From a phage, in the sequence record PV805633.1: a stretch of 64,000 nucleotides of DNA. One strand, given 5' to 3'. This document shows positions 17,597 to 20,988 of the stretch, one piece after another. The notes beneath the pieces are model-generated. The model searched no databases, had not been told where the DNA came from, and was given only the letters and a program-made list of their open reading frames with translations. The first letter of the stretch is position 1. Each line of letters opens with the position of its first letter. The translations under genes were made by a program, and so were the position numbers.

Positions 17597-17880
17597 TGAC
17601 TAAGCTCTCCGGTGGTCTTAATAACTACTATGTAGTTTTAATTAAAAATCCCCAACGGAAAGAGCAAGAGCCATATCAAGCAGAGTGTGAAGATATTATC
17701 CAAGCACTGGGCATGACCTTCGATGAAGGTTGTGCCTTTAAAGCTCTATGGCGAAATGCTGCTGCCCGTATGGGTAATGGTAAACCAGGTAACTCTTCGG
17801 TGTACGACTCAGAGAAGATTGTGCATTATGCCAATCGAATATTGAAAAAGGCTTACAATGAAAGTAACCAACAACCATGA
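17596..17880 (+). CDS. hypothetical protein (94 aa)
   Basis: ATGA overlap with upstream gene. Confidence 0.55.
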   Translation: MTKLSGGLNNYYVVLIKNPQRKEQEPYQAECEDIIQALGMTFDEGCAFKALWRNAAARMGNGKPGNSSVYDSEKIVHYANRILKKAYNESNQQP

Positions 17881-18838
17881 TGTCTCACTAGCTCTGGCTG
17901 TATGGCTATTGCATGATGAGTATGATTATGTAGACAATCCTAAGTACCTGTCTGCTACTACATTGCTTAAGCCTATTAAGCAAATCGTCATGAAGCATCG
18001 TGTAGATTTCAGTGACCAGTCCATTGATGTTATGGATTTTGTTTCCACATCAATGGGTACTGGCTTACATGATTCTATCGAGAAAGCCTGGAAGCTGGGT
18101 CATAAGACTGCATTGAAGAAGCTGGGTTATCCTCAGCGAGTAATTGATGCAGTAGTCATTAACCCAACCAAAGAAGACTTTGCTGCTAACCCTGACCTTA
18201 TCCCAATCTACATTGAACAACGTGGAACCAAGCAGGTTAAGGGATGGACTATTGGTGGTAAATTCGACATCGTAACAGAAGGTCTGTTGCAAGACTTCAA
18301 GTCTACCTCAACCTATTCCTGGGTTGCTGGTTCCCGTGATGATGAACACAAGATGCAAGGCAGCTTGTACCGTTGGATTCACAACGACATCATTACTGAG
18401 GATGTAATCCGTATTAACTACATCTTCACCGACTTCATGAAACACATGGCTAACAGCAATCCGAACTATCCTGCTAATCGTATTATGCATAAGGATATTC
18501 CGTTACTGTCTGTCGAGAAGACTGAGCGTTGGGTGGAAGAGAAGATTCACTTAATCGAAAAGTACTGGGATGCACCCGAAGAGGAAATCCCTGAATGTAC
18601 TGACGAGGAGTTGTGGCGAACAGAGCCACAGTTCAAATACTTCTCTGATGCTTCTAAGGTAGATGTACCTGGAGCCAGAAGTACCAAAAACTTTGGCGAT
18701 ATGGCATCTGCCCGTATCTTCATGGCTGAAAAAGGTGGCAAGGGTGCTATCAAGGTTGTGGAGGGGCAGGTTAAACGCTGTTTATATTGCCCTGTCGCAT
18801 CCATTTGCAAACAAAAAGAGAGATATTTTCCATCATGA
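17858..18838 (+). CDS. PD-(D/E)xK nuclease with C-terminal Cys cluster (Cas4/RecB-like exonuclease)
   Basis: D...QDFKS PD-(D/E)xK-like motif; C-terminal CLYCPVASIC cysteines; 326 aa. Confidence 0.55.
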   Translation: MKVTNNHDVSLALAVWLLHDEYDYVDNPKYLSATTLLKPIKQIVMKHRVDFSDQSIDVMDFVSTSMGTGLHDSIEKAWKLGHKTALKKLGYPQRVIDAVVINPTKEDFAANPDLIPIYIEQRGTKQVKGWTIGGKFDIVTEGLLQDFKSTSTYSWVAGSRDDEHKMQGSLYRWIHNDIITEDVIRINYIFTDFMKHMANSNPNYPANRIMHKDIPLLSVEKTERWVEEKIHLIEKYWDAPEEEIPECTDEELWRTEPQFKYFSDASKVDVPGARSTKNFGDMASARIFMAEKGGKGAIKVVEGQVKRCLYCPVASICKQKERYFPS

Positions 18839-20988
18839 GTATTGACCTTACCGGAGTAGTGCACCATCCAGCGATTGAAGAAATCGTAGATGTGCTCTGC
18901 AATAAAACCCAGAATAACGACCGGGGATTCTTCCGTGTCGAAGTAGCCTACTTCTTGGCTAAAATGGCATCCTGCATGGGTGCAACCATCGTAACTAAAG
19001 ACCGTGGTGACCTGCCGGTAAACATCTACGCTATGGCGTTGGCTACATCTGGTTTCGGTAAAGGTCACTCGGTAAATATCATTGAAGACGGGTTCATGAC
19101 TGGCTTCCGTAAACGTTTTATGGAAGACACCATGCCCGTCATTGCAAATGACCGTTTATGGAAGATTGCTAACGAACGTGCTGCTCGTCAGGGTACGGAC
19201 CAGAATGATGAGTTCGATAAAGTTGAAGCAGAGTATAAGCGTGCTGGGGCATTCCCATTCACATTCGACTCTGGTACAGCACCTGCTGTAAAACAGCTTC
19301 GTCACAAGCTACTCATGGCTGGTTGTGGTGCTATTAACTTACAGATTGATGAGATTGGTTCTAACCTCATTGCCAACGTTGAAGTACTTAACCTGTTCCT
19401 TGAGTTGTATGACCAGGGGAAAGTAAAACAGAAGTTAACCAAGAACACTGCTGAAAGTATTCGTGGTGAAGAACTGGATGGTAAGACTCCTGCTAACCTG
19501 CTGCTGTTCGGTACTCCGAGTAAGCTGCTGGATGGTGGGCAGACTGAAGACCAGTTCTATGACTTCCTCGATACAGGATATGCACGTCGTTGTCTGTTTG
19601 CCATTGGACACTTAGACAAGCGAGCACATGCAACGATGACTCCGGAAGAAATCTACCATAACCTGATTAAGCAGGATAACGTTCAGTCTCTTGGTAAGTG
19701 GGCTAACCACTTCCATAGTCTGGCTGATCCAAACCTGTTTGGCTTTAAGATGATTGTGGAAGATGCGGTGGGTATTGCTCTGATTGCTTACAAAATTGAT
19801 TGTGAGAAACAAGCAGAAGCTATGGCTGACCACGAAGAAATTCGTAAGGCTGAAATCTCTCACCGTTACTTCAAAGCTCTTAAGCTGGCAGGTGCATTGG
19901 CGTTTGTTGACCAGAGTTCATTCATTGAGATGTCTCACCTTAAACAAGCAATCCTGCTCGTAGAAGAATCCGGGGCAGCATTCCAGGGTATTCTCAATCG
20001 TGAGAAAGCCTATGTGAAGCTGGCTAAGTACATTGCCTCCGTAGGCAAAGAGGTTACTCATGCTGACTTGCTGGAGTCGTTGCCATTCTATAAGAGTGGT
20101 AATGCAGCTCGTAATGAGATGATGACTCTTGCTACAGCATGGGGTTACAAACAGCACATCATTATTAAGAAGACCTTCAATGAGGGTATTGAGTTCTTCC
20201 GTGGTGAGACTCTGAAAGAGACTGACACCAATGAGATGATAGTGGCTTATAGTGATAGCTTTGCTTATGACTATGTTGGTGAACGTGTACCGTTTGACCA
20301 GCTACATGTATTAACCCAAGCTCCCGGCATGCACTGGGTGAACCATCACATGAAGAATGGGCATCGTTCTGAAGAGAACGTTATTCCAGGATTTAACATG
20401 ATTGTTATTGACTGTGATGGTGGAGTACCACTGCATACGTGCCATGAACTGATGAAGGAATATAAGTTCATGACCTATACCACTAAGCGTCATACCGATG
20501 AAGAGAACCGCTTCCGTCTGATTATTCCAATGAACTATGAGTTACACCTCGACACTGAGGAATACAAAGAGTTCATGAATAACGTTATGGCCTGGCTACC
20601 ATTCGAAACGGATGAGTCTGCTAACCAACGAGCCAAGAAGTGGATGTCCTGTGAGACTGGTTCCTATCATTACAACCTTGATGCGAATCTGTTGGATGTA
20701 CGTGACTTTATTCCTCGTACCAGTAAGAACGAGCAGTTCCAGAACCAGATGAAGGAAGTTCAGTCGTTGGATAATCTGGAGCGTTGGTTCGCTGGTCGTA
20801 TTGCCTCCGGTAATCGTAATAATCAAATGATTAAGTACGCACTGGCATTAGTAGACAATGGTTGGGACTTTGCTCAGGTACAGCAAGCCGTCTACTCATT
20901 CAATAAGAAACTGGCTAATCCATTGCCAGATGATGAATTGAATTCAACCGTAATGGTCACCGTGGCTAAACGCTTCGCTGGCAAGTAA
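18835..20988 (+). CDS. primase-like replication protein (N4 gp43-like by position)
   Basis: 717 aa; ATGA overlap with nuclease stop; hhhDhD-like MIVIDCDGG motif; assignment mainly by synteny. Confidence 0.5.
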   Translation: MSIDLTGVVHHPAIEEIVDVLCNKTQNNDRGFFRVEVAYFLAKMASCMGATIVTKDRGDLPVNIYAMALATSGFGKGHSVNIIEDGFMTGFRKRFMEDTMPVIANDRLWKIANERAARQGTDQNDEFDKVEAEYKRAGAFPFTFDSGTAPAVKQLRHKLLMAGCGAINLQIDEIGSNLIANVEVLNLFLELYDQGKVKQKLTKNTAESIRGEELDGKTPANLLLFGTPSKLLDGGQTEDQFYDFLDTGYARRCLFAIGHLDKRAHATMTPEEIYHNLIKQDNVQSLGKWANHFHSLADPNLFGFKMIVEDAVGIALIAYKIDCEKQAEAMADHEEIRKAEISHRYFKALKLAGALAFVDQSSFIEMSHLKQAILLVEESGAAFQGILNREKAYVKLAKYIASVGKEVTHADLLESLPFYKSGNAARNEMMTLATAWGYKQHIIIKKTFNEGIEFFRGETLKETDTNEMIVAYSDSFAYDYVGERVPFDQLHVLTQAPGMHWVNHHMKNGHRSEENVIPGFNMIVIDCDGGVPLHTCHELMKEYKFMTYTTKRHTDEENRFRLIIPMNYELHLDTEEYKEFMNNVMAWLPFETDESANQRAKKWMSCETGSYHYNLDANLLDVRDFIPRTSKNEQFQNQMKEVQSLDNLERWFAGRIASGNRNNQMIKYALALVDNGWDFAQVQQAVYSFNKKLANPLPDDELNSTVMVTVAKRFAGK

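Follow-up and report, generated by a model that had tools for sequence, protein, structure and literature searches.

What does a Cas4-like nuclease do in a phage when its gene runs directly into that of a primase? This question is raised by a 3.1-kb stretch of phage sequence record PV805633.1, of which we analysed 64,000 nucleotides (the window). The initial annotation, made from the letters alone, had described an open reading frame (ORF) of 326 amino acids (aa) whose stop codon overlaps the start codon of a 717-aa, primase-like ORF. It had proposed a replication or recombination nuclease that is co-expressed with the primase. Both ORFs and the four shared letters exist as described (Table 1), and they correspond to the gp42 and gp43 genes of Gamaleyavirus (N4-like coliphages, Schitoviridae). 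A replication or recombination nuclease made together with a primase fits the gene context. Overall, we consider it probable that gp42 is an N4-type, Cas4-like nuclease with an iron-sulfur (Fe-S) staple that would resect DNA ends for phage recombination and replication, and that gp43 is made by translational re-initiation.

By its predicted fold and its active-site residues, gp42 is a RecB-family, Cas4-like PD-(D/E)xK nuclease. The protein matched phrog_2139, named 'exonuclease', over its full length (E 4.7e-152, residues 1-325 against profile positions 2-324 of 330), and also phrog_1706, named 'CRISPR/Cas system associated' (E 7e-12). A structural model of gp42 was built with AlphaFold2 on 27 homologues and reached a mean predicted local distance difference test (pLDDT) score of 89. 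When this model was compared with the PDB by Foldseek, Cas4 SSO0001 of Sulfolobus came first (4IC1; E 1.5e-7, prob 1.00, template modelling (TM) score for the target 0.63). The next matches were a phage-related exonuclease, RecE, DinG, AdnAB, human EXO5, RecBCD (the RecB nuclease domain), MGME1 and lambda exonuclease. Against BFVD, the model retrieved an orthologue from an N4-like Delftia phage, followed by Cas4-like nucleases from viruses of archaea and from uncultured phages. Thus, the PD-(D/E)xK fold that the initial annotation had expected was detected, with SSO0001 as leading structural match and the core residues D137 ... D146-F-K148 in place.

The nuclease motifs of gp42 pair with those of SSO0001 (Table 1), whose sequence we checked against 4ic1_A. 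Conservation was scored on gp42 plus 145 cluster representatives, each 32-52% identical to it. The representative search gave 4031 matches at E <= 0.001, and the best 150 of the 4031 all had E < 1e-86. In the resulting alignment of 146 sequences, G67, H71, E120, D137, D146, K148, Q167 and Y171 are invariant, which is more than chance would give. H71/E75, D137, D146 and K148, with Q167/Y171, make up the predicted metal-ion active site. An hhalign comparison of the gp42 profile with the single SSO0001 sequence aligned the motifs sensibly, but with a probability of 8.7% (E 0.0039), and the alignment stopped short of the C-terminal Cys region. In N4-like gp42 proteins, motif I is separated from the first core strand by an insertion of ~30 residues (ALKKLGYPQRVIDAVVINP...; residues about 83-115, 18104-18202), which is missing from a shorter branch of relatives typified by a protein of Leptospira phage LE4.

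The initial annotation had further pointed to a C-terminal Cys cluster, CLYCPVASIC. This cluster proved conserved: each of its Cys is retained in 145 of the 146 aligned sequences, and the single exception for C308, C311 and C317 is a gap at those columns in one sequence. gp42 contains four Cys in all, arranged as C247-x60-C308-x2-C311-x5-C317; the alignment holds no further Cys-rich column, and none before residue 247. All four are placed C-terminal to the nuclease core. C247 follows the last core helix, and the ~60 residues between C247 and C308 are predicted by AlphaFold2, with high confidence, to form a small beta/alpha unit. The CX2CX5C spacing is the same as in Cas4. On sequence grounds, an invariant pattern of four Cys is as expected of a metal site. 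Most likely, by analogy with Cas4, AddB, Dna2 and EXO5, the four Cys hold an Fe-S cluster that would staple the small C-terminal subdomain onto the nuclease; a four-Cys Fe-S module is what defines the Cas4 family (PMC5704561).

A comparable arrangement was found in the shorter branch (about 290-306 aa), which includes LE4 gp62 as well as proteins from metagenomes. Each of the 120 proteins examined shows the pattern C-x52-65-C-x3-4-C-x5-C, and a Cys within the first 80 residues occurs in only 5 of them. The sequence around the first Cys, PxCT[DE]EE[RL]W, is present in this branch as well: the regular expression used to locate the Cys matched 120 of 120 proteins, and 9-mers of that form were its commonest context.

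gp42 is not Cas4 proper. Cas4 (SSO0001, PDB 4IC1; pfam01930/COG1468) shares with it the GxxxH..E, D, (D/E)xK and QxxxY motifs and four conserved Cys including the C-terminal CX2CX5C. However, gp42 is about 120 residues longer than SSO0001, has no N-terminal Cys ligand, carries C247 after the core and has ~60 residues inserted before the Cys triad. PF01930 (Cas_Cas4) was matched neither by gp42 (E <= 0.01) nor by 27 relatives (E <= 1), the sole nuclease family found being PDDEXK_1. No association with cas1/cas2 or CRISPR was seen at the gp42 locus, where the surrounding genes serve phage replication and recombination. Since the N-terminal ligand, the PF01930 match and the CRISPR linkage are all absent, the term 'Cas4-like' of the initial annotation holds for the fold and its motifs and no further.

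Other known nucleases share parts of this architecture. The Cas4-like nucleases of phages and mobile genetic elements in pfam12705 are phage-encoded, lie outside CRISPR and are RecB/AddB-like with a four-Cys module (Hudaiberdiev et al. 2017, PMC5704561). gp42 resembles them in being phage-encoded, non-CRISPR and equipped with four Cys, although it scores below the PDDEXK_1 cutoff. The exonuclease halves of lambda Exo/Red-beta and RecE/RecT belong to the same PD-(D/E)xK superfamily, and both RecE and lambda Exo are among the structural matches. Like such halves of two-component recombinases, the gp42 family occurs alongside Erf, Sak, RecT or Sak4. It differs from lambda Exo and RecE in its subfamily, which is of RecB/Cas4 type with QxxxY and four Cys, and we know of no toroidal trimer or tetramer for gp42. 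The 'iron-staple' domains of AddB, AdnB, Dna2 and EXO5 also combine a RecB-family nuclease with four Cys, and AdnAB and EXO5 were matched structurally. These proteins place one Cys ligand before the nuclease core and three after it; in gp42, in contrast, all four follow the core.

The gene neighbourhoods of gp42 relatives outside the N4-like phages bear on function. In 10 of the 10 such contexts with enough flanking DNA, a gene for an annealing protein (Erf, Sak or RecT) stands beside the nuclease gene. The homologue of Leptospira phage LE4 follows a RecT-like annealing protein after one small gene, and Erf-like proteins adjoin the homologue in a Halobacteriovorax and in a Bacilli metagenome-assembled genome (MAG). 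A scan of genome contigs with the single protein LE4 gp62 gave 5 loci. Seven further metagenomic contigs (L088-L094) encode ERF (5) or SSAP_Sak (2) one to four genes after the nuclease and on its strand. There, genes for a RusA resolvase and a Toprim-DnaB primase-helicase are divergently transcribed just upstream, and the nuclease gene is located at or near the operon start. ERF and Sak replace each other within these otherwise similar layouts. This exchange within one scaffold, combined with the RecT and Erf found where the contexts are unrelated, matches the pattern of exonuclease halves in two-component phage recombinases. [quoted passage not shown] Given the annealing proteins beside its relatives, and gp44, gp45 and gp46 as its own neighbours, we therefore favour gp42 as the exonuclease that resects DNA ends within the recombination and replication module of the phage.

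According to this model, gp42 would resect double-stranded DNA ends 5'->3' and leave 3' single-stranded tails, which gp45 would coat. The Sak4-like annealase gp44 would pair the tails with homologous DNA, the gp43 primase and the gp39 polymerase would prime and extend the joints, and the RuvC-like gp46 would cut them. Judged from the gene context, the net outcome may be recombination-dependent replication or concatemer formation on the linear genome. gp42 and gp43 belong to one run of overlapping ORFs that extends from gp39 to gp43, and ribosomes that finish gp42 at its TGA probably start again at the gp43 ATG that overlaps it.

The last step was examined at the gp42/gp43 junction, where the initial annotation had seen translational coupling. 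gp43 directly follows gp42 in 81 of 81 related loci, and of 58 distinct junctions, 40 overlap; the overlap measures 4 nt in 26 of them, 8 nt in 11, 1 nt in 2 and 11 nt in 1. Among the 11 module genes, gp43 is the only one without a Shine-Dalgarno (SD)-like element at the usual distance: its best anti-SD pairing starts ~19 nt before the ATG, versus 10-12 nt for the other ten. SD pairing is stronger in gapped than in overlapping relatives (-6.3 versus -4.8 kcal/mol; Mann-Whitney P=0.008, not corrected for relatedness). Because gp43 lacks a well-placed SD and the overlap is conserved, coupling of gp42 and gp43 is plausible. Overlaps occur at 5 of the 10 module junctions, however (gp39/40 ATGA, gp40/41 and gp45/46 TAATG, gp41/42 23 nt, gp42/43 ATGA), and since half of the junctions behave in this way the ATGA is not peculiar to gp42/gp43. 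Coupling, then, is plausibly common to the gene chain gp39-gp43 as a whole and not specific to this pair. The mechanism claimed earlier is thus plausible, while what it described is a general operon habit that some relatives have lost.

Several observations weigh against the model as a whole, and the commonness of overlapping junctions is one of them. At the level of the family, gp42 reached only 17.4 bits against Pfam PDDEXK_1 (PF12705; E 0.0046), below the 22-bit gathering cutoff and over only the C-terminal two-thirds of the profile, and sequence searches of the PDB with gp42 alone, with a 27-sequence profile and with a 53-sequence profile gave no matches or matches at chance level. As to function, the 5'->3' polarity and the substrate are assumed from Cas4, RecE and lambda Exo, and no biochemistry or genetics of gp42 was found in the literature searched. 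The gp44 gene is not adjacent to gp42, the primase gene lying between them, and the seven metagenomic contexts are not independent because they share one scaffold (RusA and Toprim-DnaB). Coupling appears dispensable, since 13 of the 58 distinct junctions are gapped (8-39 nt) and 5 carry inserts of 63-508 nt. Finally, the N-terminal ligand site of SSO0001 (VRCPRR) corresponds to K38/P39 in gp42, with a Cys at that place in no family member, and the CX2CX5C spacing that matches Cas4 holds in the N4-like branch only. With the canonical N-terminal Cys ligand absent, the site may bind zinc or hold a cluster of another geometry.

Other results touch the same points. PDDEXK_1 was matched by 18 of 27 gp42 relatives at E <= 1 (best 6.9e-5), and many short-branch relatives carry precomputed PF12705 matches; no NCBIfam match was obtained for gp42. 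We found no literature that ties the classical N4 'exo' function to the gp42 gene. N4 replication reportedly needs a phage 5'-3' exonuclease (Guinta et al. 1986), a point not used as evidence here.

If the four Cys bound structural zinc, gp42 would be a Cas4-fold nuclease without Fe-S chemistry. The K/P, never Cys, at the first ligand position of Cas4 would fit this, as would a Cys spacing that differs between branches (CX2C, CX3C, CX4C) and the ~60-residue beta/alpha unit between C247 and C308, an arrangement not described for Cas4, AddB or Dna2. On the other hand, the well-studied four-Cys structural neighbours within the RecB family (Cas4, AdnB, EXO5) all bind Fe-S, a module of this kind defines the Cas4 family, and the terminal CX5C spacing is constant across branches. 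We thus think a zinc site rather unlikely. Somewhat less doubtful is a reading of the ATGA as genome compaction only, with gp43 translated independently and no functional coupling. It draws on the many overlapping junctions of the module, on the gapped and insert-bearing relatives, and on an AAGGA- or AGAGAG-like element ~12-19 nt upstream of gp43 that could act as a weak SD. Against it, gp43 alone in the module has no SD-like element at normal distance, gapped relatives show a stronger one, and an HNH gene inserted at this junction in phage PhAPEC5 keeps ATGA overlaps on both sides; compaction alone is for us the less convincing account, if one to be taken seriously.

The main rival to a role in recombination is a Dna2-like or flap-type nuclease of the replication fork, which would remove RNA primers or 5' flaps after priming by gp43. 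It would explain the tie to the primase, with gp42 immediately upstream and overlapping in most relatives. Dna2 and EXO5, the latter a structural match of gp42, are Fe-S nucleases of the RecB family that act on 5' flaps or single-stranded DNA, and short-branch relatives, too, have a primase-helicase nearby. Such a nuclease gains some weight because the exonuclease domain of the N4-type DNA polymerase is a 3'-5' one and a 5'-3' domain is lacking (PMC2784036). However, the short-branch nuclease shares its direction and its operon with the annealing protein, the primase-helicase being divergent, the LE4 and MAG loci pair the nuclease with RecT or Erf and have no adjacent primase, and an exonuclease plus an annealase is the classic layout of a two-component recombinase. 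We consider a fork nuclease unlikely. An anti-defence or CRISPR-interfering Cas4, of the kind found in Campylobacter phages, would share the Cas4-like fold and would agree with the phrog_1706 match; the Campylobacter phage proteins are reported to drive the acquisition of host-derived spacers (PMC5704561). But gp42 is a core protein in N4-like phages of many hosts, is embedded in a replication and recombination operon without cas neighbours, and belongs to a family consistently linked to annealing proteins and resolvases. We rejected this reading on gene context and regard it as very improbable.

End resection by a recombination exonuclease hence remains our preferred function for gp42. The non-canonical Cys layout and the systematic link to annealing proteins are the only points that we did not find described in the literature searched. 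It is possible, and we put it forward tentatively, that the gp42 family and its shorter Erf/Sak/RecT-linked relatives form a distinct and undescribed 'iron-staple' variant of RecB/Cas4 nucleases. In this variant, the N-terminal ligand would be replaced by a post-core Cys (PxCT[DE]EE[RL]W) and a beta/alpha insert of 52-65 residues would precede C-x2-4-C-x5-C, and the nuclease may serve as a widespread, interchangeable exonuclease partner of four unrelated annealing-protein families.

The product of the downstream gene is supported as primase-like, in agreement with the initial annotation. gp43 matched phrog_2135, 'DNA primase', with 1240 bits, and PriCT_1 with 30.2 bits (cutoff 21.1; residues 652-706, 20788-20952). 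PHROG primase families matched residues 502-584, a region that includes an invariant DxD of the AEP type; no Pfam AEP domain was found in gp43. The N-terminal region gave a weak match to DUF3987 (E 0.016). The AlphaFold model is good for residues 461-717 only, with a mean pLDDT of 60.5 for residues 1-460, and Foldseek returned no significant match to it, the best being MCM7 (E 0.055; MCM subunits). As the model is poor and significant structural matches are missing, the N-terminal ATPase-like domain is weakly assigned. The P-loop/DUF3987-like region (residues 1-480, 18835-20274) precedes the AEP and PriCT-1 parts, which reverses the usual order of primase then helicase. gp43 is also far more conserved than gp42 in the same phages (71-97% versus 53-98% identity, among the 120 matches listed).

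Table 1. Genes and sequence features of the gp41-gp46 region (positions in the window)
Feature	Position	Strand	Evidence or remark
gp41 (94 aa)	17596..17880	+	phrog_9919, E 5.6e-58; stop codon 17878-17880
gp42-family nuclease gene (326 aa, ATG start)	17858..18838	+	phrog_2139 'exonuclease'; fold match to Cas4 SSO0001
gp42 motif I, G67-T-G-L-H71-D-S-I-E75	18056..18082	+	G67 and H71 invariant, E75 in 141/146; pairs with GDILHLGLE of SSO0001
gp42 motifs II and III, GGKFD137 ... D146-F-K148-ST (PD-(D/E)xK core)	18254..18307	+	D137, D146, K148 in 146/146; pair with D99 and E113-x-K115 of SSO0001
gp42 motif IV, Q167-G-S-L-Y171 (RecB-family QxxxY)	18356..18370	+	146/146; pairs with QLQIY of SSO0001
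gp42 P-E-C247-T-D-E-E-L-W, first Cys of the predicted metal or Fe-S site	18590..18616	+	C247 in 146/146
gp42 C308-L-Y-C311-P-V-A-S-I-C317 (CX2CX5C), residues 308-317	18779..18808	+	each Cys in 145/146
ATGA, gp43 start codon over gp42 stop codon (4 nt)	18835..18838	+	letters of the window
gp43 primase gene (717 aa from the ATG at 18835)	18835..20988	+	phrog_2135, PriCT_1
gp43 P-loop-like GFGKGHS	19051..19071	+	invariant in the alignment of relatives
gp43 Walker-B-like QIDEIG	19342..19359	+	invariant in the alignment of relatives
gp43 AEP-type IDCD	20404..20424	+	D526-x-D528 and D593 invariant; H553 nearly invariant
gp44, Sak4-like ssDNA-annealing ATPase	21045..21797	+	phrog_124, E 7.6e-50; Pfam AAA_24, E 4.9e-11
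gp45, N4-type single-stranded DNA-binding protein	21838..22641	+	phrog_743, E 1.3e-88
gp46, RuvC-like Holliday junction resolvase	22641..23195	+	phrog_159, E 2.7e-41

The surrounding locus is that of a typical N4-like phage. The 3.1-kb stretch is 97.8% identical in DNA to Escherichia phage vB_EcoP_G7C and matched 79 phage records. G7C gp42 (YP_004782172) has the same length as its counterpart in the window, 98% protein identity to it, and the same place between gp41 and gp43; the RefSeq record of G7C labels gp42 'exonuclease' and gp43 'DNA primase'. From gp37 to gp47 the gene order is the same in both: helicase gp37, gp38, DNA polymerase gp39, gp40, gp41, gp42, gp43, gp44 (an AAA ATPase), gp45 (SSB), gp46 and gp47. 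The G7C genome differs in an HNH homing endonuclease gene, gp41.1, just upstream of gp42, which is absent from the window phage; otherwise we saw no substantive difference. By tblastn, 472 phage records contain a gp42 homologue; those sampled were nearly all N4-like. In 2009, gp42 was still listed as 'unknown' (PMC2784036). The seven orthologue clusters that form the core of N4-like phages include gp42-like, primase and gp44-like proteins (PMC3853248), and a 2025 genome paper labels the genes exonuclease, primase and Sak4-like annealing protein (PMC11934525). gp42 and gp43 are thus already known as annotated core genes of N4-like phages.

Some features of the region were recorded alongside. 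Inserted HNH genes occur at the gp42 borders of close relatives and are absent from the corresponding junctions of the window (17880 and 18835). The gp41.1 gene of G7C (L001 6073-6570), of the homing type, lies between gp41 and gp42, and the PhAPEC5 homing-endonuclease gene lies exactly at the gp42/gp43 junction (L005 5978-6493). The gp41 protein has 94 aa in the window versus 157 aa in G7C, and its match to phrog_9919 is confined to profile positions 1-91. Further matches are to the C-terminal ends of longer PHROG families, among them one called 3'-phosphatase/5'-polynucleotide kinase; the gp41 of some relatives is annotated as polynucleotide kinase. Between 12000 and 26000, sigma-70 promoter-like sites are depleted (9 found versus 25 +/- 5.5 expected from shuffles). 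N4 middle genes are transcribed by a phage RNA polymerase, and the depletion would fit transcription by such an enzyme. Terminator-like hairpins lie on either side of the module, at 12819-12836 (+) and 25114-25145 (+). Near 25-26 kb the sign of the GC skew changes, and there the genes appear to switch orientation.

Taken together, the nuclease-primase pair was recognised correctly from raw sequence, yet N4-like phages carry it as a standard, annotated core module. The Cys arrangement of gp42 departs from the textbook pattern of Cas4 and AddB, which, like the link to annealing proteins, is of limited, specialist interest. The linkage to Erf, Sak, RecT and Sak4 makes gp42 a candidate exonuclease for recombineering toolkits, and the same linkage makes it a candidate for explaining how the linear genomes of N4-type phages replicate.

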